Shown: piece by piece, positions 339 to 30,108 of the stretch
Numbering within the stretch: the first letter of the stretch is position 1
How the letters are laid out: every line of letters begins with the position of its first letter
Origin: Escherichia coli
GTDB taxonomy: Bacteria > Pseudomonadota > Gammaproteobacteria > Enterobacterales > Enterobacteriaceae
Length of the DNA: 64,000 nucleotides
Assembly (NCBI RefSeq): GCF_044647545.1
Contig: NZ_CP172818.1
Strand: one strand, 5' to 3'
The notes under the pieces: model-generated
What the model saw: only the letters and a program-made list of their open reading frames with translations
What the model was told of the DNA's origin: nothing
Databases searched by the model: none
Made by a program: the position numbers and the translations under genes

Positions 339-401
339 TGTGTAGAAAACCCTTAAGTGTTGTCCTTAAATACTGCGCAATGTAATGCCAACGTTCACAC
401 G

Positions 402-3015: not shown

Positions 3016-3048
3016 TCCCTCCCCATGAGGGGAAAGGCGATTAATACC

Positions 3049-4308
3049 ATGACACGGGCCGTGAAACCGCGCAGGTTTGCAATCAGGCCCATCATCTACG
3101 CCAGCGTTCTGAGCGCTGGCGTATTGTTGTGCGCCTTTTCCGCCCACGCGGATGAGCGTGACCAACTCAAATCCATTCAGGCTGACATCGCCGCGAAAGA
3201 GCGCGCGGTACGCCAAAAGCAACAACAACGCGCAAGCCTGCTCGCACAATTGAAAAAGCAGGAAGAGGCGATATCTGAAGCCACTCGCAAACTGCGCGAA
3301 ACGCAAAATACGCTCAATCAACTCAATAAACAGATTGATGAGATGAACGCGTCGATTGCCAAACTGGAGCAGCAAAAAGCCGCCCAGGAGCGCAGCCTCG
3401 CCGCGCAACTGGATGCCGCGTTTCGTCAGGGTGAACATACCGGTATTCAGCTGATTCTCAGCGGTGAAGAAAGCCAGCGTGGGCAGCGCTTACAGGCTTA
3501 TTTCGGCTATCTCAACCAGGCGCGACAAGAAACCATTGCTCAGTTGAAACAAACGCGTGAAGAAGTCGCTATGCAGCGTGCCGAACTGGAAGAGAAACAG
3601 AGCGAGCAACAAACGCTTTTATATGAGCAGCGCGCCCAACAGGCGAAGCTGACCCAGGCGTTGAGCGAGCGTAAAAAGACGCTGGCAGGGCTGGAGTCTT
3701 CCATCCAGCAAGGTCAGCAACAGTTGAGCGAGCTGCGCGCCAACGAATCCCGCCTGCGTAACAGCATTGCCCGTGCGGAAGCTGCGGCGAAAGCGCGTGC
3801 TGAACGAGAAGCGCGTGAGGCCCAGGCGGTTCGCGACCGCCAGAAAGAAGCGACGCGCAAAGGCACCACCTACAAGCCGACCGAAAGCGAAAAATCGCTG
3901 ATGTCCCGAACTGGTGGCCTGGGTGCGCCGCGTGGTCAGGCATTCTGGCCGGTTCGCGGGCCGACGCTGCATCGCTATGGTGAACAGCTACAGGGCGAAC
4001 TACGCTGGAAAGGAATGGTTATCGGTGCCTCTGAAGGTACTGAAGTTAAAGCGATTGCCGACGGCCGGGTGATTCTGGCTGACTGGCTGCAAGGCTACGG
4101 TCTGGTGGTGGTGGTTGAGCACGGTAAAGGCGACATGAGTCTTTACGGCTATAATCAGAGCGCACTGGTGAGCGTTGGTTCGCAGGTTCGCGCGGGCCAG
4201 CCAATTGCACTGGTGGGCAGCAGTGGCGGTCAGGGTCGGCCTTCACTCTATTTCGAAATTCGCCGCCAGGGTCAGGCGGTCAATCCACAGCCGTGGTTGG
4301 GAAGATAA
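3049..4308 (+). CDS. envC: Murein hydrolase activator EnvC (coiled-coil plus LytM/peptidase M23 domain)
   Basis: Trimmed to MTRAVKPRRF start giving 419 aa; signal peptide, long Q/A/E-rich coiled coil, C-terminal LytM-like domain. Confidence 0.92.
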   Translation: MTRAVKPRRFAIRPIIYASVLSAGVLLCAFSAHADERDQLKSIQADIAAKERAVRQKQQQRASLLAQLKKQEEAISEATRKLRETQNTLNQLNKQIDEMNASIAKLEQQKAAQERSLAAQLDAAFRQGEHTGIQLILSGEESQRGQRLQAYFGYLNQARQETIAQLKQTREEVAMQRAELEEKQSEQQTLLYEQRAQQAKLTQALSERKKTLAGLESSIQQGQQQLSELRANESRLRNSIARAEAAAKARAEREAREAQAVRDRQKEATRKGTTYKPTESEKSLMSRTGGLGAPRGQAFWPVRGPTLHRYGEQLQGELRWKGMVIGASEGTEVKAIADGRVILADWLQGYGLVVVVEHGKGDMSLYGYNQSALVSVGSQVRAGQPIALVGSSGGQGRPSLYFEIRRQGQAVNPQPWLGR

Positions 4309-4311
4309 GTT

Positions 4312-5271
4312 TTGTTTCCATTTCGTCGTAACGTTCTTGCATTTGCCGCTCTGTTGGCGCTCTCCTCCCCCGTAATTGCTGGCAAACTTGCCATCGTCAT
4401 TGATGATTTTGGGTATCGCCCGCACAACGAAAACCAGGTGCTGGCGATGCCTTCCGCTATCTCCGTCGCTGTATTACCCGATTCACCGCACGCCAGAGAG
4501 ATGGCGACCAAAGCGCATAACAGCGGTCACGAAGTGTTGATTCATCTCCCGATGGCACCGTTGAGTAAACAGCCGCTGGAGAAAAATACGCTGCGCCCGG
4601 AGATGAGCAGCGACGAAATTGAGCGCATTATTCGTAGTGCGGTCAATAACGTGCCCTATGCCGTGGGGATCAATAACCACATGGGCAGCAAGATGACCTC
4701 TAACCTGTTTGGTATGCAGAAAGTGATGCAGGCGCTGGAGCGTTACAATCTTTACTTCCTCGACAGCGTAACCATCGGTAATACCCAGGCGATGCGCGCC
4801 GCGCAAGGCACTGGCGTGAAGGTGATCAAACGGAAGGTGTTCCTCGACGATTCGCAGAACGAAGCGGACATCCGTGTACAGTTTAATCGCGCAATTGACC
4901 TGGCGCGTCGCAACGGATCAACCATTGCCATTGGGCATCCTCACCCTTCAACGGTACGCGTGCTACAACAGATGGTTTATAACCTGCCGCCAGACATTAC
5001 GCTGGTGAAAGCCAGCAGCTTGCTGAATGAACCGCAGGTTGATACGTCTACACCGCCGAAAAACACTGTGCCCGACGCACCGCGTAATCCGTTCCGTGGC
5101 GTGAAGCTCTGCAAACCGAAGAAACCGCTGGAACCTGTTTATGCTAATCGCTTCTTTGAAGTATTAAGCGAAAGCATCAGCCAGAGCACGCTGATCGTTT
5201 ACTTCCAGCATCAGTGGCAAGGCTGGGGCAAACAGCCTGAAGCGGCGAAGCTTAACGCTAGCGCAAATTAA
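4312..5271 (+). CDS. yibQ: Divergent polysaccharide deacetylase family protein YibQ
   Basis: 319 aa ORF with signal peptide; synteny after envC. Confidence 0.85.
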   Translation: MFPFRRNVLAFAALLALSSPVIAGKLAIVIDDFGYRPHNENQVLAMPSAISVAVLPDSPHAREMATKAHNSGHEVLIHLPMAPLSKQPLEKNTLRPEMSSDEIERIIRSAVNNVPYAVGINNHMGSKMTSNLFGMQKVMQALERYNLYFLDSVTIGNTQAMRAAQGTGVKVIKRKVFLDDSQNEADIRVQFNRAIDLARRNGSTIAIGHPHPSTVRVLQQMVYNLPPDITLVKASSLLNEPQVDTSTPPKNTVPDAPRNPFRGVKLCKPKKPLEPVYANRFFEVLSESISQSTLIVYFQHQWQGWGKQPEAAKLNASAN

Positions 5272-6292
5272 AGGCGCTACGCGTAATGCGATGGTGCGAC
5301 CGCGTTTTGTCGCGCCATTGCCATAAGCGGAAAGACCACAGTAACGCCTGATAACCCACCTTCACGCTGCGCACATTGGTAATCAGGCGCTTATACATAC
5401 CGGAAGTAAATATCTCGGCAATCATCCGTTGGCGGGTAATAATATCCGGCTCTTTGCGCACCGCATGGCAAACACGCAATGCTTCGTAGGTTATTTGCTG
5501 ATGAAATTCCGGATAAATCGTAATTTTGTCAGCATAATTTCGATTTAATTTCTCCAGCAGGCGGGTAATCTTAATATAGTGACGTTGATAATTAAGGTTT
5601 TTGTTCCCTTGTCTGTTCAACCGACTCACTGACGTATTATGCAGATAATATTTATATAATGATTGCTCGGTATATCGCGCACGCAGCGCGTTAAACATAA
5701 ATTCTGTTGTCCAGACAATATCCTGATGATGTAATCCGGCAATAAATTTAATGTTATTTTTAACAATAACATCGCGGCGATAAACCCCCATCCAGACCAC
5801 GTGTGTCCAACGGCGGGAAGAAAGTCCCATCCGCAGCCAGTCCGGACCAGTTAATACACCGGTTGAGCGAAGGCGATCGGTAGGGATGGATTGCCAGGTT
5901 TCACCCGTTTCACGAAAACACCAATCAGCGTTGCACTGCGCCACGTCGAGGTCGTCCTCTAACGCCATGGTCATCAGCGTTTCGTACATGGTGGGATAGA
6001 CCTCATCGTCAGCATCGACAAAAGCGACATATTTTCCCGTTGCCACCTCGATCCCACGATTACGCGCCACCGATGCGCCAGCATTCGCCTGATGCAACAA
6101 ACGAACGTGCGGATAGTTTTCTGCGTAATGCTTTGCTATTTCAACAGAATTATCCGTTGAACCATCGTTAATAATAATGATTTCCAGAGCAGTCCATGTT
6201 TGCGCAATTAAAGATTCCATACAAGTGCGGAAATCATTGCCCGCATTATATAACGGAATAATAACACTAAGTTTATTGGTGCTGTTCATCAT
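5258..6292 (-). CDS. waaH: Family 2 glycosyltransferase WaaH (YibD)
   Basis: 344 aa ORF; N-terminal GT-A motifs (SVIIPLYNAG, DGSTD, DADD); synteny. Confidence 0.85.
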   Translation of the reverse strand: MMNSTNKLSVIIPLYNAGNDFRTCMESLIAQTWTALEIIIINDGSTDNSVEIAKHYAENYPHVRLLHQANAGASVARNRGIEVATGKYVAFVDADDEVYPTMYETLMTMALEDDLDVAQCNADWCFRETGETWQSIPTDRLRSTGVLTGPDWLRMGLSSRRWTHVVWMGVYRRDVIVKNNIKFIAGLHHQDIVWTTEFMFNALRARYTEQSLYKYYLHNTSVSRLNRQGNKNLNYQRHYIKITRLLEKLNRNYADKITIYPEFHQQITYEALRVCHAVRKEPDIITRQRMIAEIFTSGMYKRLITNVRSVKVGYQALLWSFRLWQWRDKTRSHHRITRSAFNLR

Positions 6293-6496
6293 AAATTACC
6301 GACGACCTCTGAAGTTATCCTGACGTTTTACAGGCTTTGTATTAAGAAACTATTAAGCCTGTGAGATATTATTTTTACCGGTGAGAGAGTCACGTCAGGG
6401 TAGAGAGATAATGAGAGCAGCTATATAAGAGATCAGCGCAATTACGATATCTTGATTACACTGACAGGATTTTACATATTTAACGGATTATCCTCA

Positions 6497-6521
6497 GGAA
6501 AAAGGGCTGGAATACCAGCCC
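6497..6521 (-). terminator. Putative rho-independent terminator downstream of tdh (end of kbl-tdh operon)
   Basis: GC stem gggctgg/ccagccc (6504..6521) followed on the minus strand by a T-run, 10 bp after the tdh stop. Confidence 0.5.
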
Positions 6522-6530
6522 TTGTTTGTG

Positions 6531-7556
6531 TTAATCCCAGCTCAGGATAACTTTCCCGGACTGGCCCGAACGCATGGCGTCAAAGCCCTTCTGGAAATCA
6601 TCGATAGAGAAACGATGAGTAATGATCGGCGAAAGATCGAGGCCAGACTGAATCAGCGCCGCCATCTTGTACCAGGTTTCAAACATCTCACGACCGTAAA
6701 TACCTTTAATGAACAAGCCTTTAAAGATCACTTTGGTCCAGTCGATAGACATATCAGACGGTGGAATACCCAGCATCGCAATACGACCGCCGTGGTTCAT
6801 GGTGTCGAGCATGGTACGAAACGCTGGCGGCGCACCGGACATTTCCAGACCGACATCAAAGCCTTCGGTCATGCCCAGTTCTGTCATCACATCATTAAGG
6901 TTTTCTTTCGCGACGTTAACCGCACGGGTGATACCCATTTTACGCGCCAGCTCAAGGCGGTATTCGTTAACATCAGTAATCACCACGTTACGTGCACCAA
7001 CGTGTTTCGCCACCGCCGCAGCCATAATACCTATCGGACCTGCACCAGAAACCAGTACATCTTCGCCCACCAGATCGAACGACAGCGCAGTATGCACGGC
7101 GTTACCGAACGGATCAAAAATGGAAGCCAAATCGTCGGAGATATTGTCAGGGATTTTGAAGGCGTTGAACGCCGGAATCACCAGATATTCGGCGAAGCAG
7201 CCCGGACGGTTAACACCGACACCAGTGGTGTTGCGGCACAGATGGGTACGACCGCCACGACAGTTGCGACAGTGACCGCAAGTGATATGGCCTTCACCAG
7301 ATACGCGATCGCCAATCTTGAAGCCTTTCACTTCCTGACCAATACCTACCACTTCACCGACATATTCATGGCCCACGACCATCGGCACCGGGATGGTTTT
7401 TTGCGACCACTCATCCCAGTTATAGATGTGAACGTCAGTCCCGCAGATGGCTGTTTTACGGATTTTAATCAGCAGATCGTTATGCCCGAGTTCCGGTACA
7501 GGAACGTCGGTCATCCAGATGCCCTCTTCCGCTTTCAGTTTGGATAACGCTTTCAT
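6531..7556 (-). CDS. tdh: L-threonine 3-dehydrogenase
   Basis: 341 aa ORF, zinc-dependent MDR-family motifs ([15 protein letters not shown]); kbl-tdh operon arrangement. Confidence 0.95.
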
Positions 7557-7565
7557 CTCACATCC

Positions 7566-8762
7566 TCAGGCGATAACGCCCAGTTGTTTACCAATACGCG
7601 TGAATGCTTCTACTGCACGCGTAATTTGCTCAGGGGTATGCGCCGCAGACATCTGGGTACGAATACGCGCCTGACCTTTCGGAACGACCGGATAGAAGAA
7701 ACCGGTGACGTAAATCCCCTCTTTTTGCAGCTCACGAGCAAATTTCTGCGCTACTACCGCATCGCCAAGCATGACCGGAATAATGGCGTGATCGGCTCCC
7801 GCCAGGGTAAAGCCCGCCGCCGACATTTGCTCACGGAACTGACGCGCGTTCGCCCACAGACGGTCACGCAGCTCGCTACCCGCTTCAACCATCTCCAGCA
7901 CTTTGATGGAAGCGGCAACAATGGCCGGTGCCAGCGAGTTGGAGAACAGGTACGGACGAGAACGCTGGCGCAGCCACTCAACCACTTCTTTGCGCGCCGC
8001 GGTATAACCACCAGAAGCCCCGCCCAATGCTTTACCCAACGTACCGGTAATGATGTCTACACGCCCCATCACATCGCAGTATTCATGGGAACCACGACCG
8101 TTTTCACCGACAAAACCGACCGCGTGGGAGTCGTCTACCATCACCAGGGCATCGTATTTATCTGCCAGATCGCAAACGCCCTTCAGATTGGCAATCACGC
8201 CGTCCATCGAGAACACACCATCGGTGGCAATCAGCACATGACGCGCACCGGCTTCACGCGCTTCTTTCAGACGAGCTTCCAGCTCCTGCATATCGTTGTT
8301 GGCATAGCGATAGCGTTTAGCTTTACACAGACGCACACCATCAATAATAGACGCGTGGTTCAGTGCGTCGGAGATAATGGCGTCTTCCGCGCCCAACAGC
8401 GTTTCAAACAGGCCACCGTTAGCATCAAAGCAGGAAGAGTAGAGAATCGCATCTTCCATCCCCAGGAAGGCCGCCAGTTTTTGTTCAAGCTCTTTATGAC
8501 TGTCCTGAGTGCCGCAAATAAAACGCACCGAAGCCATGCCGAAACCGTGAGAATCCATTCCCGCCTTTGCCGCCGCAATCAGATCCGGATGATTCGCCAG
8601 TCCGAGATAGTTATTGGCACAAAAGTTAATGACGTGGCTTCCATCAGCCACAGTGATATCTGCTTGCTGCGCAGACGTAATAATGCGCTCTTCTTTAAAC
8701 AACCCTTCCGCCCGTGCGGTTTCCAGATCGTTGGTTAACTGCTGATAACATTCTCCACGCAT
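7566..8762 (-). CDS. kbl: 2-amino-3-ketobutyrate CoA ligase (glycine C-acetyltransferase)
   Basis: 398 aa ORF, PLP-dependent aminotransferase class II; immediately upstream of tdh. Confidence 0.95.
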
Positions 8763-8971
8763 TGCGATTCTCCAGACAGGGCAAATTCCAGCACATATTA
8801 CCCAAACTTATAGGTCGCGACGAGATGACGCGTTAACACTTCTGCAAAATTCAGGATAAATCCAGCCCCCTCACTTTTGGTGAATGGCTGAAGCCAACGT
8901 CATGTAGTGATATGATAAGAAGTATTCGTGTCTGAGATTGTCTCTGACTCCATAATTCGAAGGTTACAGCT

Positions 8972-9904
8972 ATGATCATCGTTACCGGCGGCGCGGGCTT
9001 TATCGGCAGCAACATCGTTAAAGCCCTGAATGATAAAGGCATCACCGATATTCTGGTGGTGGACAACCTGAAAGACGGCACCAAGTTTGTCAACCTGGTG
9101 GATCTGGATATCGCGGACTATATGGATAAGGAAGACTTCCTGATCCAGATTATGGCTGGCGAAGAGTTCGGCGATGTCGAAGCGATTTTCCACGAAGGCG
9201 CGTGCTCTTCCACCACCGAGTGGGACGGCAAGTATATGATGGATAACAACTATCAATACTCCAAAGAGCTGCTGCACTACTGTCTGGAGCGCGAAATCCC
9301 GTTCCTGTATGCCTCTTCCGCAGCCACTTACGGTGGACGCACCTCCGACTTTATTGAATCCCGCGAATATGAAAAACCGTTGAATGTCTACGGTTACTCA
9401 AAATTCCTGTTTGATGAATATGTTCGCCAAATCCTGCCTGAAGCGAACTCGCAGATTGTTGGCTTCCGTTATTTCAACGTTTATGGACCGCGTGAAGGCC
9501 ATAAAGGCAGCATGGCGAGCGTCGCTTTCCATCTCAACACCCAGCTTAATAACGGTGAATCACCGAAGCTGTTCGAAGGTAGCGAGAACTTTAAACGCGA
9601 CTTCGTCTATGTGGGCGACGTGGCAGATGTAAACCTGTGGTTCCTGGAAAATGGCGTTTCCGGCATCTTCAACCTCGGTACTGGTCGTGCGGAATCCTTC
9701 CAGGCTGTAGCAGATGCTACGCTTGCTTATCACAAGAAAGGCCAGATCGAATACATTCCGTTCCCGGATAAACTGAAAGGCCGCTATCAGGCGTTCACGC
9801 AGGCAGACCTGACGAATCTGCGCGCGGCGGGTTATGACAAACCGTTCAAAACCGTTGCCGAAGGCGTAACGGAATACATGGCCTGGCTGAATCGCGACGC
9901 ATAA
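8972..9904 (+). CDS. hldD: ADP-L-glycero-D-manno-heptose 6-epimerase
   Basis: 310 aa ORF starting [16 protein letters not shown] (Rossmann NAD(P) motif); first gene of hldD-waaFCL operon. Confidence 0.95.
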
Positions 9905-9913
9905 GAGCTCTGC

Positions 9914-10960
9914 ATGAAAATACTGGTGATCGGCCCGTCTTGGGTTGGCGACATGATGATGTCGCAAAGTCTCTATCGCACGCTCCAGGCGCGCTATCCC
10001 CAGGCGATAATCGACGTGATGGCACCGGCATGGTGCCGTCCATTATTATCGCGGATGCCGGAAGTTAACGAAGCTATTCCTATGCCTCTCGGTCACGGAG
10101 CGCTGGAAATCGGCGAACGCCGCAAACTGGGTCATAGTCTGCGTGAAAAGCGCTACGACCGCGCCTACGTCTTACCCAACTCCTTCAAGTCCGCATTAGT
10201 GCCTTTCTTCGCGGGTATTCCTCATCGCACCGGCTGGCGCGGCGAGATGCGCTACGGTTTACTTAACGATGTACGCGTGCTCAATAAAGAAGCCTGGCCG
10301 CTAATGGTGGAACGCTATGTCGCGCTGGCCTATGACAAAGGCATTATGCGTACAGCACAAGATCTGCCGCAGCCATTGTTATGGCCGCAGTTGCAGGTGA
10401 GCGAAGGTGAAAAATCATATACCTGTAATCAATTTTCGCTTTCATCAGAACGTCCGATGATTGGCTTTTGCCCGGGTGCGGAGTTTGGTCCGGCAAAACG
10501 CTGGCCACACTACCACTATGCGGAGCTGGCAAAGCAGCTGATTGATGAAGGTTATCAGGTGGTTCTGTTTGGCTCGGCGAAAGATCATGAAGCGGGCAAT
10601 GAGATTCTTGCCGCTTTGAATACTGAGCAGCAGGCATGGTGTCGTAACCTGGCGGGGGAAACACAGCTTGATCAAGCGGTTATCCTGATTGCAGCCTGTA
10701 AAGCCATTGTCACTAACGATTCTGGCCTGATGCACGTTGCGGCGGCGCTCAATCGTCCGCTGGTTGCCCTGTATGGTCCGAGTAGCCCAGACTTCACACC
10801 GCCGCTATCCCATAAAGCGCGCGTGATCCGCCTGATTACCGGCTATCACAAAGTGCGTAAAGGTGACGCTGCGGAGGGTTATCACCAGAGCTTGATCGAC
10901 ATTACTCCCCAGCGCGTACTGGAAGAACTCAACGCGCTATTGTTACAAGAGGAAGCCTGA
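9914..10960 (+). CDS. waaF: LPS heptosyltransferase II
   Basis: 348 aa ORF, GT9 heptosyltransferase; synteny. Confidence 0.93.
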   Translation: MKILVIGPSWVGDMMMSQSLYRTLQARYPQAIIDVMAPAWCRPLLSRMPEVNEAIPMPLGHGALEIGERRKLGHSLREKRYDRAYVLPNSFKSALVPFFAGIPHRTGWRGEMRYGLLNDVRVLNKEAWPLMVERYVALAYDKGIMRTAQDLPQPLLWPQLQVSEGEKSYTCNQFSLSSERPMIGFCPGAEFGPAKRWPHYHYAELAKQLIDEGYQVVLFGSAKDHEAGNEILAALNTEQQAWCRNLAGETQLDQAVILIAACKAIVTNDSGLMHVAAALNRPLVALYGPSSPDFTPPLSHKARVIRLITGYHKVRKGDAAEGYHQSLIDITPQRVLEELNALLLQEEA

Positions 10961-10963
10961 CGG

Positions 10964-11923
10964 ATGCGGGTTTTGATCGTTAAAACATCGTCGATGGGCG
11001 ATGTTCTCCATACGTTGCCCGCACTCACTGATGCCCAGCAGGCAATCCCAGGGATTAAGTTTGACTGGGTGGTGGAAGAAGGGTTCGCACAGATTCCTTC
11101 CTGGCACGCCGCCGTTGAGCGAGTTATTCCTGTGGCAATACGTCGCTGGCGTAAAGCCTGGTTCTCGGCCCCCATAAAAGCTGAACGCAAAGCGTTTCGT
11201 GAAGCGCTACAAGCAGAGAACTATGACGCAGTTATCGATGCTCAGGGGCTGGTAAAAAGCGCGGCGCTGGTGACGCGTCTGGCGCATGGCGTAAAGCATG
11301 GCATGGACTGGCAAACCGCTCGCGAACCTTTAGCCAGCCTGTTTTACAATCGTAAGCATCATATTGCGAAACAGCAGCACGCCGTAGAACGCACCCGCGA
11401 ACTGTTTGCCAAAAGTTTGGGCTATAGCAAACCGCAAACCCAGGGCGATTATGCTATCGCACAGCATTTCCTGACGAACCGGCCTACAGATGCTGGCGAA
11501 TATGCCGTATTTCTTCATGCGACGACCCGTGATGATAAACACTGGCCGGAAGAACACTGGCGAGAATTGATTGGTTTACTGGCTGATTCAGGAATACGGA
11601 TTAAACTTCCGTGGGGCGCGCCGCATGAGGAAGAACGGGCGAAACGACTGGCGGAAGGATTTGCTTATGTTGAAGTATTGCCGAAGATGAGTCTGGAAGG
11701 CGTTGCCCGCGTGCTGGCCGGGGCTAAATTTGTAGTGTCGGTGGATACGGGGTTAAGCCATTTAACGGCGGCACTGGATAGACCCAATATCACGGTTTAT
11801 GGACCAACCGATCCTGGATTAATTGGTGGGTATGGGAAGAATCAGATGGTTTGTAGGGCTCCAAGAGAAAATTTAAATAACCTCAACAGTCAAGCAGTTT
11901 TGGAAAAGTTATCATCATTATAA
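10964..11923 (+). CDS. waaC: LPS heptosyltransferase I
   Basis: 319 aa ORF, GT9; synteny. Confidence 0.93.
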   Translation: MRVLIVKTSSMGDVLHTLPALTDAQQAIPGIKFDWVVEEGFAQIPSWHAAVERVIPVAIRRWRKAWFSAPIKAERKAFREALQAENYDAVIDAQGLVKSAALVTRLAHGVKHGMDWQTAREPLASLFYNRKHHIAKQQHAVERTRELFAKSLGYSKPQTQGDYAIAQHFLTNRPTDAGEYAVFLHATTRDDKHWPEEHWRELIGLLADSGIRIKLPWGAPHEEERAKRLAEGFAYVEVLPKMSLEGVARVLAGAKFVVSVDTGLSHLTAALDRPNITVYGPTDPGLIGGYGKNQMVCRAPRENLNNLNSQAVLEKLSSL

Positions 11924-11932
11924 AGGTAAAAC

Positions 11933-13192
11933 ATGCTAACATCCTTTAAACTTCATTCATTGAAACCTTACACTCTGAAATCATCAATGATTTTAGAGAT
12001 AATAACTTATATATTATGTTTTTTTTCAATGATAATTGCATTCGTCGATAATACTTTCAGCATAAAAATATATAATATCACTGCTATAGTTTGCTTATTG
12101 TCACTAATTTTACGTGGCAGACAAGAAAATTATAATATAAAAAACCTTATTCTTCCCCTTTCTATATTTTTAATAGGCTTGCTTGATTTAATTTGGTATT
12201 CTGCGTTTAAAGTAGATAATTCGCCATTTCGTGCTACTTACCATAGTTATTTAAATACTGCCAAAATATTTATATTTGGTTCTTTTATTGTTTTCTTGAC
12301 ACTAACTAGCCAGCTAAAATCAAAAAAAGAGAGTGTATTATACACTTTGTATTCTCTGTCATTTCTAATTGCTGGATATGCAATGTATATTAATAGCATT
12401 CATGAAAATGACCGCATTTCTTTTGGTGTAGGAACGGCAACAGGAGCAGCATATTCAACAATGCTAATAGGGATAGTTAGTGGCGTTGCGATTCTTTATA
12501 CTAAGAAAAATCATCCTTTTTTATTTTTATTAAATAGTTGCGCGGTACTTTATGTTCTGGCGCTAACACAAACCAGAGCAACCCTACTCCTGTTCCCTAT
12601 AATTTGTGTTGCTGCATTAATAGCTTATTATAATAAATCACCCAAGAAATTCACTTCCTCTATTGTTCTACTAATTGCTATATTAGCTAGCATTGTTATT
12701 ATATTTAATAAACCAATACAGAATCGCTATAATGAAGCATTAAATGACTTAAACAGTTATACCAATGCTAATAGTGTTACTTCCCTAGGTGCAAGACTGG
12801 CAATGTACGAAATTGGTTTAAATATATTCATAAAGTCACCTTTTTCATTTAGATCAGCAGAGTCACGCGCTGAAAGTATGAATTTGTTAGTTGCAGAACA
12901 CAATAGGCTAAGAGGGGCATTGGAGTTTTCTAACGTACATCTACATAATGAGATAATTGAAGCAGGGTCACTGAAAGGTCTGATGGGAATTTTTTCCACA
13001 CTTTTCCTCTATTTTTCACTATTTTATATAGCATATAAAAAACGAGCTTTGGGTTTGTTGATATTAACGCTTGGCATTGTGGGGATTGGACTCAGTGATG
13101 TGATCATATGGGCACGCAGCATTCCAATTATCATTATATCCGCTATAGTCCTCTTACTCGTCATTAATAATCGTAACAATACAATTAATTAA
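11933..13192 (+). CDS. waaL: O-antigen ligase
   Basis: 419 aa polytopic membrane protein, AT-rich codon usage; position after waaC; length equals K-12 WaaL. Confidence 0.9.
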   Translation: MLTSFKLHSLKPYTLKSSMILEIITYILCFFSMIIAFVDNTFSIKIYNITAIVCLLSLILRGRQENYNIKNLILPLSIFLIGLLDLIWYSAFKVDNSPFRATYHSYLNTAKIFIFGSFIVFLTLTSQLKSKKESVLYTLYSLSFLIAGYAMYINSIHENDRISFGVGTATGAAYSTMLIGIVSGVAILYTKKNHPFLFLLNSCAVLYVLALTQTRATLLLFPIICVAALIAYYNKSPKKFTSSIVLLIAILASIVIIFNKPIQNRYNEALNDLNSYTNANSVTSLGARLAMYEIGLNIFIKSPFSFRSAESRAESMNLLVAEHNRLRGALEFSNVHLHNEIIEAGSLKGLMGIFSTLFLYFSLFYIAYKKRALGLLILTLGIVGIGLSDVIIWARSIPIIIISAIVLLLVINNRNNTIN

Positions 13193-13206
13193 GAATAAAC
13201 AAGTTT

Positions 13207-13232
13207 AAGAAGTGAGTTAAAACTCACTTCTT
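13207..13232. terminator. Perfect palindrome between convergent waaL and waaU (putative bidirectional terminator)
   Basis: aagaagtgagtt-aa-aactcacttctt inverted repeat overlapping the waaU stop codon. Confidence 0.4.
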
Positions 13233-14297
13233 ATCTATACAACTTAATCTCTTTACTGAATTAGTTAAAGTTTCAGTATCGATATCTTTTACCGTATATG
13301 TTGGGGATACTATTTGTATAGATTTATGATGATTCGGGGACCAAATTAAATGCGAGGGATATTCCGGAGTACGTGAATTAGGGTAAAATGCAAGCGTTGG
13401 TTTATGATAAGCCGCAGCGATATGAACAAGAGCTGTATCAACAGAAATGACAAAATCACTATACTTGGTCAACGCAACGGTATAAATAAACTCATCAAAT
13501 GGTAGTGTTTCGATTTCAAGTATTGGTATTGTCAATAAATCTTGCGGTAACCCGGTAAATATAATCCGATAATTTTCAAAGTGTGTTTTCACTTCTTGAT
13601 ATATAACTTTTATTTGCTCAAACGTAAGACGGCATATTTTTTTTGCACCTAATGGATTAATAATGACTATTCTTGTATCTCCAATAAATTCTTTTATTTT
13701 ATCTTCAACATCTACTGGTAAATGCAAGTCGTAGTTGGTGGAAAATTTACCCTCACCATAAATATGCTTCAGTATTTCTATTGCTCGTGTACTCATATGT
13801 TCTTTTAAACATTCATCGTGGGGATGGTAAAATGAATAGTAACGCTTATACCAATGATCAAAACCCAGAATGTAAGAATCTTTTAAACTTGATAATATTA
13901 AGCTATGCTTAAATGAGGGCATAGTTTCAAAGGGGTCTAATACAATATCGAACTGTAAATCCCGCAGATGCTTACATAGAGTAAGCATTTCAAGAAAACC
14001 GGTTGATTCTTTAATACAGAACTCAAATATATTTTTATTATTAGAGAGAAATTCCCCACCCTTTCTATTTGTGAGAAGAGTTATTTTAACCCCTTTACTA
14101 TAAAGTTCACGATAAATCGAACTTAATACAATTAGATCACCAAGTTTATTATTATCATGAATAATAAGGCATGATTTAACTTGTGCTGGATCTGTAATTT
14201 GATTATTTATTTTATTACGAAATAAAAAAGAAAGGAAATTAATCTTGATTTTGTTTATATAAAATCTTTTCTTTTTGTGAAAAGTTCCTAAGCGCAT
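13224..14297 (-). CDS. waaU: LPS core heptosyltransferase IV (RfaK/WaaU, K-12 type)
   Basis: 357 aa ORF, GT9-like; last gene of waaQ operon; length equals K-12 WaaU. Confidence 0.85.
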   Translation of the reverse strand: MRLGTFHKKKRFYINKIKINFLSFLFRNKINNQITDPAQVKSCLIIHDNNKLGDLIVLSSIYRELYSKGVKITLLTNRKGGEFLSNNKNIFEFCIKESTGFLEMLTLCKHLRDLQFDIVLDPFETMPSFKHSLILSSLKDSYILGFDHWYKRYYSFYHPHDECLKEHMSTRAIEILKHIYGEGKFSTNYDLHLPVDVEDKIKEFIGDTRIVIINPLGAKKICRLTFEQIKVIYQEVKTHFENYRIIFTGLPQDLLTIPILEIETLPFDEFIYTVALTKYSDFVISVDTALVHIAAAYHKPTLAFYPNSRTPEYPSHLIWSPNHHKSIQIVSPTYTVKDIDTETLTNSVKRLSCIDKK

Positions 14298-14329
14298 TTT
14301 TATACCATATTATTTTAGTTTCAGGATGA

Positions 14330-15181
14330 TTAATTAGCATAAGAATCGGTTGAAGTTCTATATTGCATTTTTTTTCTTGTCATATCTTTTGATTCTTCTG
14401 CACTGATGTCTTGAAGTTTAATAAATGGAATTACATCGTAAGAAATAGCTGTATCATCTGATAAATTATAAATATTAATATCTTTTACATTATCATGCAT
14501 AAAACGAAAAAATGGCAATATTTTGAATAAATCCCTACTTAATTCCGAGGGCATGGGATTTTTATTCTCATCATAGAAACGAGAACAGCTACCCGTTAAA
14601 TCAAGACCAGAACAAATAATCCGCGCATACTTAAGTGAATATGCGATTTGAATTGCAGCAAAGGCAATAGTATGGCATGAGCAATAACCAAGACTAATGT
14701 CCTTGCAAAATCCAACCAGACGACCTTTTTTAGACAACGGTACAGAGATCAGCAGTTCTTTGTGAATCTGTCTCAAAATATTAAATTTAATCTTCTTTAT
14801 AAAACCACCTTTTTCCCGACGGTAAAAGGACCGTAATACGAGGCAGTTCTGGAGGATATAAAGTTTATCTTCTTTGGAAGCGTGTTCATAAACGTCAACG
14901 TTTACTATGGTATAACGACTTCTCTGGCTAAATTTATAAAAATCATCACGACGCTGATGTAAAAATCGGACATCTGTAAGTACATATATAAAAGGAACGA
15001 TATTATTACTTAACAGATATTGCGCAGAACCATTGACAGCAATAATATCCTTTGTTCGTAATACTGACAAAGGTGTTTTTTGCGATGTAGGGCCCGAAAG
15101 AAAAATAATAACATCATCAGATATTTTATTTTCAATCAGGTTTTCAACATCTTTTTTGTCAATGTATCTAATATTCTTCAT
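14330..15181 (-). CDS. waaZ: LPS core biosynthesis protein WaaZ (KdoIII-associated)
   Basis: 283 aa ORF; position and length as in K-12 waa cluster. Confidence 0.8.
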   Translation of the reverse strand: MKNIRYIDKKDVENLIENKISDDVIIFLSGPTSQKTPLSVLRTKDIIAVNGSAQYLLSNNIVPFIYVLTDVRFLHQRRDDFYKFSQRSRYTIVNVDVYEHASKEDKLYILQNCLVLRSFYRREKGGFIKKIKFNILRQIHKELLISVPLSKKGRLVGFCKDISLGYCSCHTIAFAAIQIAYSLKYARIICSGLDLTGSCSRFYDENKNPMPSELSRDLFKILPFFRFMHDNVKDINIYNLSDDTAISYDVIPFIKLQDISAEESKDMTRKKMQYRTSTDSYAN

Positions 15182-15251
15182 GATAAACCTGTGAAATAAA
15201 TAACTCCGCTTAAAACTGTCCTGGTGAAGACATGTAATTGTGGGATTTTTT

Positions 15252-15950
15252 TTAGCGCGCTGGTTTCCCTTTCAAACGCCGCATAAAATTGCGCATTTTT
15301 TTACGATATACTAAAAGATAATAGCCTAGATCTCTAATCTCATTTTTAATACCGTAATGACGCTCTAAGTCAATACGATCTTTCGCTTTACGCTGCGCTG
15401 AAGCACGCTTTCCGGAGAGATCGATAATTCGAACCTCACCATTTTTTATAATGAAGTTACCACGATGGGGGTCGCCAGAAACCATGCCATGTTGATGTAA
15501 GGCATTAATTGATTGCTGAATTTTATTTTTTAGCGCATCATCAATATCGGGCATATCACACAACTCTATGCCATCAATATACTCGATGATCATGATATAA
15601 GTATGGACAAAACGTAAGGTTTTCCGTTCAGCCAATAAATAAAAGTCATTGAGTGTATTTAACCCTTCATTTCGTACTTTTTGGGTTTGCTCAAAAAGGC
15701 GTTCGTAATAATCACCTTTTAACAGAGACTTAAAGAAACGTTCGTTACGCTTAACTTTCGGAGAAAAAACCTTAAGAATCAATTTACCGTAATCGGTATC
15801 AATAAGCATAACTTTTGTATCATCAATAGAACGAAAAACCTTGATGATATTTATATTATAAGACAAGAAGTCATTTAATACATTGAGGTACTTTGAATTG
15901 TTTTCATCGGTAAAAACAACCAAGTCTTTGATCTTGCTCTTCTGAATCAT
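15252..15950 (-). CDS. waaY: LPS core heptose(II) kinase
   Basis: 232 aa ORF, kinase-like (HGDPHRGNF); position and length as K-12 WaaY. Confidence 0.85.
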   Translation of the reverse strand: MIQKSKIKDLVVFTDENNSKYLNVLNDFLSYNINIIKVFRSIDDTKVMLIDTDYGKLILKVFSPKVKRNERFFKSLLKGDYYERLFEQTQKVRNEGLNTLNDFYLLAERKTLRFVHTYIMIIEYIDGIELCDMPDIDDALKNKIQQSINALHQHGMVSGDPHRGNFIIKNGEVRIIDLSGKRASAQRKAKDRIDLERHYGIKNEIRDLGYYLLVYRKKMRNFMRRLKGKPAR

Positions 15951-15967
15951 AATAAACCAGTTAAATG

Positions 15968-16984
15968 TTATTTACGGTAATATTTTCGGCAAAGATAACA
16001 GACTCCTGCTATAATTCCTGAGATATAATGATGTTGCACTAAAAGATGTTTATATCTTTTTTTAAATTCAATAATTGATTTCGCATCTCGTGGAGAGTCA
16101 TCTTTCCAGGGGGAATTTTCTAAAGCTATTTTATAGTATTTTACCGATGGATAAATTGCCCATTTGTGCCACGGTTTAGTTGCACCTGTATAATGAATAA
16201 GAAGAGTACTTTCTGTAATCAGCTTTTTATAGTTTTGATGTGTTTTGTCTTTTAATTCACTTTTAATTGTATAAATTGTATTGTACTCACGAGGCAAAAA
16301 TAATGTCATCCCTTTCAGTAAGACATTCATAACATCCTGATCAGGGTATTTATAAACATTATCTTTACTCATAAGAATAGACAACGCTTTTTCTGTTAGT
16401 TTTGCGTCAGCCCATTTTTTTAAGTCTAAATAAACGACACCGGAATTAAAGTACTGCCCAAGTAATTCAGGATCAGACAACCTGGATACCGCCTTTTCTT
16501 GCATTGGCTCAACATCTTTAACAACAGCAGCAACCGCTCCATTTAAACCCAGATGTAATAGTTGGCTAATATCGCCTTTACAAACAACATCTGCATCAAG
16601 ATAAAGCAAACGATCAAGCGTTAAACCCAATAATTGAAATGCAAATAAACGGAAGTACATTGCTCTTGACCAGACCTGTGTACAAGGCAAGCACTGGAGC
16701 TTATCAGTGTTAATTCTATATAACGTGATTCTTAATTGGTTTTGCTCTGCAAGCTTTGCAATTTTTTGAAAAAAACCATCATTATAAACATCAGCAATAA
16801 TATAAAAATCAAGATTAATATGTCGATTATTTAGGACAATTGATGTGATGGAAACACCTACACCATCAAGATAATTAGCATCGACACCATAGGCAACATT
16901 TAAACATTCAGAAGTATTTATATTAGCTAGCCGAAAATCCCAGGCTTTAACTTTATCTATCTCTATGGCAGGAAATGAGTCCAC
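15968..16984 (-). CDS. waaJ: LPS alpha-1,2-glucosyltransferase (GT8; RfaJ, called WaaR in Heinrichs nomenclature)
   Basis: 338 aa ORF, GT8 family with DxD; position and length as K-12. Confidence 0.85.
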   Translation of the reverse strand: MDSFPAIEIDKVKAWDFRLANINTSECLNVAYGVDANYLDGVGVSITSIVLNNRHINLDFYIIADVYNDGFFQKIAKLAEQNQLRITLYRINTDKLQCLPCTQVWSRAMYFRLFAFQLLGLTLDRLLYLDADVVCKGDISQLLHLGLNGAVAAVVKDVEPMQEKAVSRLSDPELLGQYFNSGVVYLDLKKWADAKLTEKALSILMSKDNVYKYPDQDVMNVLLKGMTLFLPREYNTIYTIKSELKDKTHQNYKKLITESTLLIHYTGATKPWHKWAIYPSVKYYKIALENSPWKDDSPRDAKSIIEFKKRYKHLLVQHHYISGIIAGVCYLCRKYYRK

Positions 16985-17023
16985 AATGCTACCCTTATAT
17001 CATTACTTTATAGTTTCCCAGTT

Positions 17024-18043
17024 TTAATGCTTTATCTTTTCAATAAAATAAAAAAGATAGTTGCTAAATCCTTTTAGATATCTATGCTTTTTAAGCATAT
17101 GTTTTGCGCTATATCTTAATTGATTGCTATTGTTCGGTTTCAGCAACGCCGTATTCTTCCATGGCGAAGCATTTTTTGCCTCCATAAAGGCTTGTGATAC
17201 AGGATAATCCCAGGCCCAATCATGCCAGGGCTTGGTTGGCCCGATATAATGGATAAAAATAGTATCGTTGGTTACTGGGTTTATAAAGCTTTCTTTGAGT
17301 TGATAATTTAAGCTGAACTGGGTGTTATATTTAATATCAGCGAAAATAAGTTTATCCGCCAGCAACATATTTAACACATCCTGATCAGGATGTGTTATTT
17401 TTTTGATTATTTCTGGCTCATTTAGCATTGCAATAGCTCGTGCAGAAACCTGCTGAGCCGCCCATTGGGCAGTATTAATCAATAAAAAACCGGAGTTAAA
17501 GTAACCTTTAGCAATTCCCGCAACACCTAACGAATGGGCGCGTTTTTCCCACCAGTCAGCTTGCCCTTCTGTAACAACCATTGCGACTTTATCGTCAGGA
17601 AATGAGAAATTAATTAGTGGCTCAATAGTCCCCTGACAAATGATATCTGCATCCAGATAAAGGACTTTAGGCGCCTTATTAATAAAGTAATCTGCAATAA
17701 CAAAACGAAAATATATTGCATGAGTCCAATTCTTAGTGCTAGGCAATGAGCGCAGTCGATCACCATTAATCAGATATATTTTAATTCTGGTTTTATACTG
17801 CAACGCCAGGGCATCAAAATACTTACGATCATCATCACCAAAATAATCAGTAAAAATATGGAAACACAATCGACTTCCTTCATTATATTTTAATATTGAA
17901 GCAATCGAAATTCCGCAACCAAATAGAAAGTTTTTGTCAGTTCCATAAGCGATGTCCAGACAAAGATTTTCTGTTTCTACTTTATGATCATAATCAATAA
18001 CTGAATTAAGAAACTCAGTTTCCTGGAAAAACACCTGCTGCAT
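17024..18043 (-). CDS. waaO: LPS alpha-1,3-glycosyltransferase (GT8; RfaI/WaaO)
   Basis: 339 aa ORF, GT8 family, paralogous to waaJ; position and length as K-12. Confidence 0.85.
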   Translation of the reverse strand: MQQVFFQETEFLNSVIDYDHKVETENLCLDIAYGTDKNFLFGCGISIASILKYNEGSRLCFHIFTDYFGDDDRKYFDALALQYKTRIKIYLINGDRLRSLPSTKNWTHAIYFRFVIADYFINKAPKVLYLDADIICQGTIEPLINFSFPDDKVAMVVTEGQADWWEKRAHSLGVAGIAKGYFNSGFLLINTAQWAAQQVSARAIAMLNEPEIIKKITHPDQDVLNMLLADKLIFADIKYNTQFSLNYQLKESFINPVTNDTIFIHYIGPTKPWHDWAWDYPVSQAFMEAKNASPWKNTALLKPNNSNQLRYSAKHMLKKHRYLKGFSNYLFYFIEKIKH

Positions 18044-19122
18044 TATTTCCTCCGGGAAATAGCAGAAATAATTACCTTATGTAATCTATCGTAATACTTC
18101 GATTGGTAAAATTCATCGATCGACGCAGGAATTTTTTCATGTTCGATATGAATTTCACCTGCTATATATTTATTTAGAAGAGTTACAAAACCAGCAATAT
18201 CTCCCGGTTGATACAGATGGCCATTGACATCAGGTTGAATAATGTCAGCAGGCCCGGAGACACAATCGGCACTGATACAAGGAATCCCCCACGACAAGGC
18301 TTCAAGTAGGGTCATTGGGAAACCTTCAAAAGATGACGTGAGCAATAACGCACTCACTTTTTCAATATCTTGCTGGACCAATTCCCAGGGATATTGTTGC
18401 CAACCATACCAGACAATTCGATCATCAATATTTAATTCTCTACCATAAGCCTGGCATTTTTCGAAATCGGAGCCATCACCCAATACATGGAGTTTCCAGT
18501 TACCTTTCGCTTGTGATAAGCCATCAAGCAGGTCTTTAACTCTTTTCTGGCCTTCAAATTTCATACGCCCAACATAAATAAACGTTGCCGTTTCACCTTC
18601 CTCGGGCGCGGGAATGACTGAGTCTTTAGTTTCGACGGGATTAAAAATAACATTTATCGTCGATTCTGCTACACCTCGATTAATCATTTGCTGTTTAATG
18701 CCAGAGCTGATTGCTAAATGATAGTCGGCACAGGTGATATATTCAGCATGTTTTTTGTGATCTAAAGAAAAATGTGGCCATGAAAATACTGGCATATCAA
18801 TTCCTGATTTTTTACGTGCTTTTGCGGCAAACAGGCAGGAGATCACATCAATACAAATAACGATATCTGGTTGGTACTCCTGAAGCCATTTACTTAGAGC
18901 ATGAATATGTTTCGCCCGACGCAAAAAACCTAAACGAATATTGGAAAATGAACATGAGTATTTAATACCTTCCAGCCATCCCTTATCCATTTTGTCATTA
19001 CGACAAAAGAAAAACATTTCACTTTGGATATGTTGTTGCCTGAAGGTAGTAATAACATCACGGATGACAGTTTCCATGCCGCCAAATCCAGAAACAGCTT
19101 CGCCGATAAACGCTATTTTCAT
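18043..19122 (-). CDS. waaB: LPS alpha-1,6-galactosyltransferase (GT4)
   Basis: ORF 18043..19152 trimmed to MKIAFIG start giving 359 aa; GT4 family; position as K-12. Confidence 0.85.
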   Translation of the reverse strand: MKIAFIGEAVSGFGGMETVIRDVITTFRQQHIQSEMFFFCRNDKMDKGWLEGIKYSCSFSNIRLGFLRRAKHIHALSKWLQEYQPDIVICIDVISCLFAAKARKKSGIDMPVFSWPHFSLDHKKHAEYITCADYHLAISSGIKQQMINRGVAESTINVIFNPVETKDSVIPAPEEGETATFIYVGRMKFEGQKRVKDLLDGLSQAKGNWKLHVLGDGSDFEKCQAYGRELNIDDRIVWYGWQQYPWELVQQDIEKVSALLLTSSFEGFPMTLLEALSWGIPCISADCVSGPADIIQPDVNGHLYQPGDIAGFVTLLNKYIAGEIHIEHEKIPASIDEFYQSKYYDRLHKVIISAISRRK

Positions 19123-19165
19123 AGAAACTCTCATTAATTGAGTAAAACTCACTGTTTTAACGGTT

Positions 19166-20101
19166 TTATTTGTCTATAAAATCAGAAACAATCGTTGACA
19201 TCATTTTATCTGGACTGAATTTATATAAACTATCATAATCCATTGGTTTAACAGATGAGTTAATAAAATACTCTAACTTATCCCAATCATCATGACCTAT
19301 TATAAAAAAGCGAGATTCACTATAGATTTCTGAACCAAATACATTTATATTATTAGTAATTAATTTTTTATTGAAAAATAGTGCCTCAAGTATACGAAGA
19401 GTCCAGCCAGATTGGTTTTCTTTGGTTATATCAACAATTATATTAGCATTTAATGTTCTTCTAATATTCTCTTCATAAGATATTTGTTTTTCAATCAAAT
19501 ACTTTGAAGTCGTAGATGATGTCTTATCTTTGACAACATTAAAATCTAGCTTACATCCTAGTGTTGTTAATCTCTCGGCTAACTCATTAATTATTTGAAG
19601 ACGCCCTTTATCACGACCAAGGAAAAAACATATTGGCTGGCTGTTATTTTTGTCAGATAAACTATAATTTCTAATTTCATCCATTCCTATAGGAAAAAAT
19701 TGTTCTATTGCCTTGATCTTTTCATTCCCTATAAATCTATGCTCAAAATCATATATAATATCGAAATAATTCGCGTTATCAAGAATAAAATCTTCGCCAA
19801 CAGTATTTCTTAGAAGCAAAACTTTATGACAGTTAATATTTTTTAATATTTGTTTATTGATACCTTTATTAACAACACTGTCATTAATGATAATTATGTC
19901 ATCTTTTTTAATATCATTGAGGTAATGCTTGATGAATAATCGCCCCAGCCATGCATTATCCATCCCTATTTTTGATATTTTTTTATTAATCCAGTTATAT
20001 TTTTTTGGTGTTGTTATATTTTTTATCTTGTACTTTTTTTTCAGGTACTGAATCATTTTTAATTCATAATCTGCAACCCAATTTATAAAATAAATAGTCA
20101 T
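19166..20101 (-). CDS. waaS: LPS core biosynthesis protein WaaS
   Basis: 311 aa ORF, very AT-rich; position and length as K-12 WaaS. Confidence 0.8.
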
Positions 20102-20137
20102 AATAAAGTTAGTTCCAGTACATACTAATAAATATTT

Positions 20138-20935
20138 TTATAATCCTTTGCGTTGTGTTCGCTCTTTAATACGCTCGGCCTTAACGCTTGCCATGTTCAA
20201 TAAATTCTGTTCAAGAGACAATATTTTGCGTAAAGGCATCCCAAAATACACTTTCATAAACCGCCAGATATCCCGCTGAGTCAGGCCGATATTCATCGAA
20301 GAAAAATAAAGCCCAATAAGATCTTTATCGCGCCAACGACGTGGAACGCGCGTGCGAAGCTGCGCCCGGTGCAGGTCAATTACTGAAATTTTTAACTCCT
20401 CTTCCTTACCGGAAAAAGGCAAGTGCAGCAGGAAATGACAGATATAACAGTCACGGTGGTTAATGCCCGCAGCATGCATATCGCGCACCATCGTCGCGAC
20501 ACGCTTAATAAGCATACGCTTTACGCGAACATCTGGTGGGTTGGTCGCCCAGTCAGCACAGTAATCTTCCAGACTGATGGTTGGTGTCAGATCTTCGGTA
20601 ATAATAAACGAGGTTCTGGTCAGCGGATTAATGCCTTTTTCGCCGAATGCCACCCCATACATAGTATCAACGCCGACATCCCGCAGTCGATGAATCGCAT
20701 TCCATTCGCGGTCTGCGCCTAATACTGGCATCCGCAATGAGAGTAAATTTTTGATTATCTCTTTCAGGGTCGTGCCGCGATGCCATTTGAGAAAATAGCT
20801 TTTGCCCGCCATTTCAAAGCGCAGAGTGCGGCGAGTTTCCAGTTCACGAAATACCTCACCCTGCAAGGTTTTAACTTCCTCAAAAGGATCTTTACCGCGC
20901 CATAACGTGGCAAACGGCTCTTTAAGTTCAACCAT
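20138..20935 (-). CDS. waaP: LPS core heptose(I) kinase
   Basis: Trimmed to [14 protein letters not shown] start giving 265 aa; kinase motifs ([11 protein letters not shown]). Confidence 0.9.
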
Positions 20936-22052
20936 CCAGACCACCCGTTATGATGTCCGCTGCTTTCTCTGGCAGACTGTATAAATCTTGTGTATCAGCA
21001 TAATGTCGCGCATTTTCTGCCCAGGCCTGGCGCAATGAAGATTGCGTTAACGCTTTGCGTAAAATCTCATTCAATGTTTCCTGGCGGAATGGCTCAGCAA
21101 TAGCCTCGCCGCAATTGGCGTCAACAATATAATGCGCATAGCCACAAACGGCTGTTGTTAGTACCGGTAATCCTGCAGTAATCGCTTCCAGCAGCACAAT
21201 TCCCGCCGCTTCCTGGTAGGCAGGATGAAGTAATAAATCCGCCGCCGCCATTAATTCCGAGACATCGTTGCGCCCCGAGAAGAAGTGAACATTACTGCGC
21301 ACGCCGCGTTTTTCTGCCAGCGCCTCAAATTTTCGCGGTTTATCCTGCCCAACAACATATAGTAATGTGTTGTGGCGCAGCGAATCCGGTAACGAAGCAA
21401 GTGCTTCAATGGAACGATCGACACCTTTACGCGTGAAGTCTGAACCGACCTGCAACAATAAATATTGTTGTTCGGTTATTCCATTCTTCTTACGGAAGAT
21501 TTCACGGCTATTCGCTGGTTGCTGGCTATATTTACGATCAGGATAAATCCCCGGTGGCAGAATATGAAAACGCTCCGCTTCAGTCTGATAATGTTTCTGG
21601 AAATCGGCGATTTGCTTATCTGTCAGCATCAGCAGCTGTGTCGGCTTGCCCTGTTCGAAGGTTGCCCGCTCAAAGGCGGCATAATGGCGATAACGTGACG
21701 TCAGGCGATAGAAAAAGCCTTTCTCCTGCGCTACTTTCTCGGCATAACAAACATCAGCGGCATAATAAACGTCCAGCCCCGGCATTTTATTAAATCCAAC
21801 GACTCTATCGACGGGGTATTCACGTAAATGTTTTTGCACCCAGGCAAAATATTCCGCATTGCGCCCGTGATTGGTATGCGATTTAACCGGCACTTTGATC
21901 AGTTCAAATACATCAGGGCATTCGCCTTCCCACGACTGGGTATAAACCCGAACATGATGACCTCGGGCGGCAACTGTCTGAGCAATACGCATAAAATCGC
22001 GCTGCAAACCGCCAAAGGGAAAATATTTATATAAACAAAAAGCAACGATCAT
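20928..22052 (-). CDS. waaG: LPS glucosyltransferase I (GT4)
   Basis: 374 aa ORF; overlaps waaP start and waaQ stop (translational coupling). Confidence 0.92.
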
Positions 22053-23107
22053 AACGACGTACCTGTCGTGGAGGAGGGAAGTAATTTATCGACAGCTGCA
22101 ATGACATCTGCCGCCGGAATAACCGAAAGATACATCTCATTTCGGTCACGCTGATCGCGCGTTGGCATTTCCCGGTAATCTCCCGCCCAGAATTGAATCA
22201 TGTTATTTGACCAGGGACGCCAGAAAATATGGTCTGTCGCACCAAACAGCGATATCAGTGGCGTATTAACTGCAGCGGCAATATGCGCCGGTGCGGAATC
22301 AACGCCAATAAACAGCTGCGCATGATCGATTAACGCACCAAGTTCCGGGAAGGTCACCTTTCCGGCCAGTGCCGTTACTGGTGGCGTCTGGCATCCCTGC
22401 GCAATTTCATTGACGCAGGCCAGATCGTCTTTATCTGGGCCGGACGTCAGAACGACTTCATAACCACGAGCATGTAAGGCATCAATCACAGCGGAAAACT
22501 TGGCGTTGTCCCAGCATTTGAAGATTTGCCGCGCCGTAGGTTGGATAACCACATAATTTTGTCCAACACCAGCGTGATCAAGTTCGCGACGCATACGTTT
22601 CCAGCTTGCAGGCGGGTAACTCATGGTTGTCTGCTTCACCAACGATTCAAGTCCCAATGGCGTCAGCACGGATAAGTTACTTTCCACCACATTTCCACCC
22701 TGCAACGGCACCAAATGAGTGAAACTATTACGCCAAAAAGCAGACTGCCGATGATGATAATCCTGGGAAATTTTCACACGGGCATTTAATAAGCGAACCA
22801 GTATAGCAACCATCCATTGATCGGTAAGATTAACGATAAGGTCATACTTATTGGCACGTAATATCTTGATGAGATGGAAAAAGTTGGCAATTTTTTCTGA
22901 GGCTTTTGCTTTTTTATTTTTTATGCCGTAGAGCGCGTTAATCTCTGGATTTTCAGACAGGATCGGGATGGTGTCCTGATAAAGCAGCACATCGATTTTT
23001 GCGTCAGGGTAATTTTTTTTCAGCGAACTAATGACGGGAGTAGTTAATAACATATCCCCATGAAAACGCATCTTAATGAGCAAAATTCTTCGAAATGGCT
23101 TATCCAC
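22049..23107 (-). CDS. waaQ: LPS heptosyltransferase III
   Basis: GT9 family; first gene of long operon; ORF starts with GTG at 23107 (352 codons); true start may be the in-frame TTG 24 nt downstream (344 aa). Confidence 0.88.
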   Translation of the reverse strand: MDKPFRRILLIKMRFHGDMLLTTPVISSLKKNYPDAKIDVLLYQDTIPILSENPEINALYGIKNKKAKASEKIANFFHLIKILRANKYDLIVNLTDQWMVAILVRLLNARVKISQDYHHRQSAFWRNSFTHLVPLQGGNVVESNLSVLTPLGLESLVKQTTMSYPPASWKRMRRELDHAGVGQNYVVIQPTARQIFKCWDNAKFSAVIDALHARGYEVVLTSGPDKDDLACVNEIAQGCQTPPVTALAGKVTFPELGALIDHAQLFIGVDSAPAHIAAAVNTPLISLFGATDHIFWRPWSNNMIQFWAGDYREMPTRDQRDRNEMYLSVIPAADVIAAVDKLLPSSTTGTSL

Positions 23108-30070: not shown

Positions 30071-30108
30071 TATGACGTCCGGCATGATTATTCATCCAGC
30101 GAATATTT

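Follow-up and report, generated by a model that had tools for sequence, protein, structure and literature searches.

The interval between kbl and hldD (rfaD) in the 64,000-nucleotide stretch of Escherichia coli DNA analyzed here (the window) is very probably the ancestral compact control region of these two genes, in which the htrL (yibB) gene was never present in this lineage, the gene having been gained by K-12-like lineages. The initial annotation correctly noted that htrL is missing between kbl and hldD and that E. coli K-12 carries it at this place. In MG1655, the yibB/htrL gene (858 bp, minus strand) occupies a kbl-rfaD interval of 1,435 bp rather than one of about 200 bp. The interval of the window contains no substantial open reading frame (ORF) in the ORF list, and a tblastn search with the K-12 HtrL protein found no homolog either inside the interval or elsewhere in the 64-kb window (best E = 5.4). 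The gap had been placed after the kbl stop codon; however, according to the ORF list the two genes are transcribed divergently, and it is their two start codons that the 209 bp separate. The coordinates are collected in Table 1.

Table 1. Features of the kbl-hldD interval and of the waa locus in the window
Feature	Coordinates	Strand	Remarks
kbl, glycine C-acetyltransferase, 398 aa	7566..8762	minus	start codon 8760-8762
Divergent kbl-hldD control region, 209 bp, without htrL	8763..8971		majority haplotype, very probably ancestral
kbl-proximal block	8763..8861	minus	about 99% identical to K-12; conserved across genera
Variable spacer CCAGCCCCCTCACTTTTG	8862..8879		swapped for the approximately 1.24-kb htrL cassette in K-12
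hldD-proximal block	8880..8971	plus	retained in both haplotypes
hldD (rfaD), 310 aa	8972..9904	plus	0 mismatches to FDAARGOS_497
Outer-core block	11863..20248		last 61 nt of waaC, waaL, waaU, waaZ, waaY, waaJ, waaO, waaB, waaS, last approximately 105 nt of waaP
waaP (most), waaG, waaQ, non-K-12 type	20249..23107	minus	0 mismatches to FDAARGOS_497

The promoter elements of the two genes were named from their conservation across genera alone. On the kbl side, the hexamer TAATAT (minus strand, 8796-8801) is a putative -10 element of kbl. On the hldD side, CTGAAG (8888-8893) and TGATATGAT (8908-8916), with a 17-nt spacer, are near-invariant across genera and are kept in K-12; they could represent the -35 and the extended -10, respectively, of a putative hldD core promoter. 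A consensus scan of positions 8700-9030 for sigma-70 promoters and terminators yielded nothing, in particular no strong sigma-70 site. The variable spacer between the two conserved blocks can be aligned with its counterparts in E. albertii and in other E. coli and has related versions in other genera, but it is absent from K-12. Comparing the interval with Rfam produced no meaningful hit, and the repeat search identified no repeats in it, nor any direct repeats at the htrL site; an inverted 11-nt copy of GATAAATAACG within the K-12 cassette is at chance level.

The distribution of the two haplotypes was determined using a 901-bp query spanning the interval, which was searched in 5,426 complete E. 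coli genomes and matched 5,424 of them. The match is a single piece in 3,465 genomes (about two thirds), for instance, in CFT073, Nissle 1917, and E. coli B REL606, all lacking htrL. The remaining genomes show a match that is broken at the spacer; K-12 and O157:H7 are among them, with the break at query positions 462/525. The K-12-specific segment of 1,266 bp was found in exactly 1,959 genomes (about 36%), always on the chromosome, and within this collection htrL DNA is confined to genomes with the split interval. Since the two counts add up to 5,424, every matching genome is in one state or the other. The compact interval is 213 bp long in most htrL-less E. coli, compared to 209 bp in the window. 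The absence of htrL is already known as accessory-gene variation: a pangenome study described htrL/yibB as variably present among urinary tract infection isolates (PMC8303582). The absence of htrL seemed surprising because K-12 was taken as the norm and the locus was taken to be K-12-like throughout. The frequencies correct this K-12-centered expectation: as an accessory gene, htrL is carried by a minority of E. coli, and an interval without it is the default. The importance of this for biology is small.

Outgroups point to the same state as the original one. We collected the hldD neighborhoods from 80 species and located kbl and HtrL in each. The kbl-hldD gap is 212-261 bp in more than 40 species, including E. 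albertii (213 bp), Citrobacter (214 bp), Enterobacter, Phytobacter, and Cedecea (215 bp), Kluyvera (216 bp), Serratia (240 bp), Yersinia (244-261 bp), and Photorhabdus (about 232 bp), and none of the gaps surveyed in these taxa contains HtrL. The htrL-less interval is the state of every sampled outgroup genus but one. The spacers can be aligned across genera and consist of a short variable center between two conserved blocks. In K-12, the sequences on either side of the cassette are preserved (99 nt next to kbl and approximately 90 nt next to hldD), and the K-12-specific segment has a GC content of 36.0%, versus 54.2% in kbl and 50.9% in rfaD. As a deletion in a K-12-like ancestor could not have recreated the approximately 18 nt of the spacer, we infer that the window is ancestral and K-12 derived, the event being a gain in K-12-like lineages.

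The K-12 arrangement, seen in K-12 and about 36% of the complete genomes, very probably arose by insertion of a low-GC cassette of approximately 1.24 kb with htrL/yibB into the short unconserved spacer that separates the two putative core promoters; approximately 18 nt were displaced in the process, and the promoter blocks on either side were preserved. The compact ancestral control region lies between two divergent operons, kbl-tdh and hldD-waaF-waaC(-waaL), and the window backbone, which matches strain FDAARGOS_497, lacks the cassette like that of most E. coli. Some htrL-less strains within otherwise htrL-positive groups may result from secondary losses or recombinational replacements. The center of the kbl-hldD spacer appears to be indel-prone. 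In E. coli BS-01 (L089, 4691-4879), the htrL-less interval is only 189 bp long, with further deletions in the central spacer.

Genes at the same site were identified in several other genera. In Enterobacter sp. Ag1 (L026, 3562-5000), which has an Escherichia-like hldD leader, htrL is found between kbl and hldD. The Ag1 cassette is 73% identical to that of K-12 at the DNA level and 81% identical at the protein level, and its left junction lies at the same GGATAAAT(A/C)ACG motif as that of the K-12 cassette. This complicates a simple single-gain story and indicates that the cassette has considerable age and can move from genus to genus. In Citrobacter youngae (L072, 3399-5000), the site is occupied by a gene for a 383-aa GT4 glycosyltransferase, and in a Plesiomonas metagenome-assembled genome (L071, 3258-4270) by a 230-aa ORF. 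The Ag1 htrL and the C. youngae GT4 inserts both have the orientation of kbl, and their sites are occupied whereas that of the window is empty. The cassette occupies the sole unconserved approximately 20 nt between two divergent promoters, at a site that also hosts other lipopolysaccharide-related genes in other genera. The K-12 HtrL protein belongs to the Pfam family HtrL_YibB and the NCBIfam family protein YibB, the function being unknown according to both, and no credible match was obtained when solved structures were searched with the HtrL sequence. Members of the HtrL family were also reported in the lipooligosaccharide loci of Acinetobacter and Campylobacter (PMC4172580).

The waa locus of the window is a mosaic, as seen directly in the identity profile. 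Positions 1-11,862 have no mismatches to FDAARGOS_497 (NZ_CP033850.1) apart from three private changes described below, and most of 20,242-64,000 again has none except for indels and one degraded stretch. The outer-core block between these parts is identical to MG1655 but for an A at 11,877, with 0 mismatches over 8,371 nt (11,878-20,248). Hence, the initial statement that the waa locus otherwise agrees with K-12 holds for gene order, while at the sequence level the K-12 allele is present at 11,863-20,248 only, and it is because of this outer-core module that the locus looks K-12-like. As in MG1655, waaL follows waaC on the hldD strand and waaU-Z-Y-J-O-B-S are on the opposite strand; the ORFs of waaL, U, Z, Y, J, O, B, and S encode 419, 357, 283, 232, 338, 339, 359/369, and 311 aa, respectively. 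Comparison with K-12 MG1655 thus reveals common putative core promoters and identical waaL to waaS genes, but also the approximately 1.24-kb htrL cassette instead of approximately 18 nt, hldD, waaF, and waaC that are 97-99% identical (a difference of 1-3%), and waaP, waaG, and waaQ that are only 70-88% identical (12-30%), the waaQ product being 352 aa in the window versus 356 aa in K-12. In other words, the window has the gene order of a K-12-type waa locus, but neither the K-12 alleles of waaP, waaG, and waaQ nor htrL.

FDAARGOS_497 has the same divergent interval without htrL, the same ancestral spacer, and no mismatches in the flanking genes; its interval is 213 bp long, the window differing by a 5-nt deletion, one additional A, and the substitution F5C in Kbl. 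As this strain combines a different outer core with the absence of htrL, the missing htrL in the window reflects the backbone. The combination of a K-12-type core with an htrL-less interval is also common elsewhere. It initially seemed rare (about 10 genomes), but this was a ranking effect, and a spread sample gave about two thirds, that is, 8 of the 12 sampled genomes with the K-12-type core lack yibB. For instance, like the window, strain AVS0710 has the full K-12-type gene order, the common waaQ type of 1,059 bp, and a compact interval without htrL, which is 213 bp long in AVS0710. In K-12-core strains of non-K-12 background such as AVS0710, the outer-core block has diverged from MG1655 by 3-4%, whereas that of the window is identical. 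Both joints of the block coincide exactly with borders of non-homology. On the right side, the joint (CAAAATA in waaP) is otherwise found only in BS-01, BS-04, and HS-01, and the stool isolate HS-01 has an identical outer-core block with the same waaS-waaP joint. A very large gene index contains no exact entry for either of the hybrid proteins, WaaC and WaaP. According to the literature, all B2 strains with the K-12 core belong to STc131, and the exchange of core types was ascribed to homologous recombination (PMC8715443; see also PMC13293308).

These data allow us to weigh two other origins of the compact interval. The initial annotation had offered a natural lineage difference or a deletion at one border of the waa locus, and it is the lineage difference that agrees with the majority haplotype of E. 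coli. A secondary deletion, in which a K-12-like ancestor had htrL and the lineage of the window lost it, would be in line with the outer-core block identical to K-12, which indicates that K-12-like DNA entered, or was placed in, the locus. Nevertheless, this scenario is very unlikely, given that the window retains the approximately 18-nt ancestral spacer missing in K-12, that the sequence from kbl through the interval, hldD, and waaF into most of waaC fits FDAARGOS_497 (0 mismatches versus 17-45 mismatches per kb to K-12), and that direct repeats and scars are absent at the site. Deliberate deletion of htrL, by recombineering or a comparable technique, might be suspected from the several junctions of the window that lie exactly at homology borders, and from the hybrid WaaC and WaaP proteins that are on record nowhere, so that some human intervention is possible. 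Still, we consider it extremely improbable. A pattern scan of the window allowing up to two mismatches identified no FRT, loxP, I-SceI, or Datsenko-Wanner P1/P2 primer sites, which bears out the earlier remark that no engineering scar is apparent; moreover, the interval equals a natural haplotype of 3,465 genomes, and FDAARGOS_497, a strain of the parental type, already lacks htrL.

The immediate vicinity of the interval carries changes specific to the window. Over the 64 kb, the window has about six point differences and four large structural ones relative to FDAARGOS_497, and three of the point differences cluster within 170 bp, at 8749, 8861/8862, and 8917. The first (plus-strand C at 8749) changes TTT to TGT in kbl, resulting in Kbl F5C. 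The exact Kbl F5C protein was found on five other contigs from unrelated strains, each with an adjoining htrL gene; this recurrence in unrelated htrL-positive strains indicates that the substitution is probably real. The second is a private 5-nt deletion (TAACG or AACGT) at 8861/8862 within the motif GGATAAAT(A/C)ACG, which is present in all nine other aligned taxa and marks the left cassette junction in K-12 and Enterobacter sp. Ag1. The third is an extra A at 8917, directly after the putative hldD -10 element. No other genome shares the two interval indels, which could be genuine variants with a regulatory role or could stem from sequencing errors. Any consequence of the three changes is hypothetical.

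Large structural differences from FDAARGOS_497 are seen at further sites of the window. At 30,072-30,097, the window has an empty site where FDAARGOS_497 carries a 1,290-bp retron-type reverse-transcriptase insert between slmA and pyrE. The palindrome at this position differs at 8 of 36 nt from the version of K-12, BS-01, and strain 503025, and its hairpin is disrupted; among the 5,018 genomes in which the site is empty, the best match is 93.9%. At 47,016/47,017, the window has a 6.7-kb deletion relative to FDAARGOS_497, with one end inside a BglG-family antiterminator gene; the deleted island encodes lyxose isomerase, a ROK protein, aldolases, a fructose-type PTS, and the BglG-family antiterminator. 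A 540-nt remnant (47,017-47,555) upstream of yicI, specific for FDAARGOS_497 and missing in K-12, is retained. At 55,858-55,900, the window is devoid of the 18-kb eip/eilA/iatC island of FDAARGOS_497 (type III secretion-related, next to yicS near tRNA-Sec) and contains a 44-nt K-12-like filler with three changes between flanks of the FDAARGOS_497 type, the best natural match being 94.8%. The junctions of all four large differences lie exactly at borders of non-homology with no flanking SNPs, and not one of these junctions is present in the collection of 5,426 complete E. coli genomes. Further downstream, 57,270-57,990 corresponds to a toxin-antitoxin locus of FDAARGOS_497 (RelE/ParE-HTH) in a progressively degraded form with smeared homopolymers (A12, G16, and C9), and perfect identity to FDAARGOS_497 resumes abruptly at about 57,990. 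This segment resembles the end of a poor-quality read that was incorporated into the assembly. Since the interval is 209 rather than 213 bp long, the indels are unshared, and the region at 57.3-58.0 kb is degraded, part of the sequence could be erroneous.

The origin of the mosaic itself is less clear. It is possible, although we hold this only tentatively, that the K-12 block, the missing islands, and perhaps the spacer indels are of non-biological nature, caused by reference-assisted gap filling or contamination with K-12 reads, or that they reflect deliberate construction. The complete identity to MG1655 over 8,371 nt next to almost no mismatches to FDAARGOS_497 elsewhere is consistent with such an explanation, as are the exact junctions at non-homology borders, free of flanking SNPs and found in none of the 5,426 complete genomes, and the homopolymer-smeared stretch at 57,270-57,990. 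On the other hand, the stool isolate HS-01 shares the block and the waaS-waaP joint, the combination of a K-12-type outer core with the common waaPGQ and no htrL is a frequent natural layout, and exchange of core types by homologous recombination is described in the literature (PMC8715443). Besides, the segment at 47,017-47,555 and the divergent waaPGQ genes are retained, which a K-12-guided consensus could not yield, and part of the empty retron site resembles FDAARGOS_497 and not K-12. Consensus assembly guided by K-12 as the sole source of the mosaic is ruled out by the intact FDAARGOS_497-specific DNA and the very divergent waaPGQ. We consider it unlikely that the window is a real recombinant or construct, in which the MG1655-identical outer core was grafted at exact borders into a chromosome of the FDAARGOS_497 type and the three private changes are selected regulatory adjustments; if true, the outer-core swap would move waaL into the hldD operon. 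As the FDAARGOS_497-type backbone lacks htrL, the absence of htrL in the window would be real even if the K-12 block were an artifact. The mosaic structure, the exact-junction island losses, and the degraded stretch call for caution with this assembly, and other findings from the window need to be checked for sequence quality and chimerism.

Finally, two single-base differences from FDAARGOS_497 were observed elsewhere in the window, one at 31426 within the rph ORF (30,816-31,556) and the other at 30102, 5 nt from the empty retron site.
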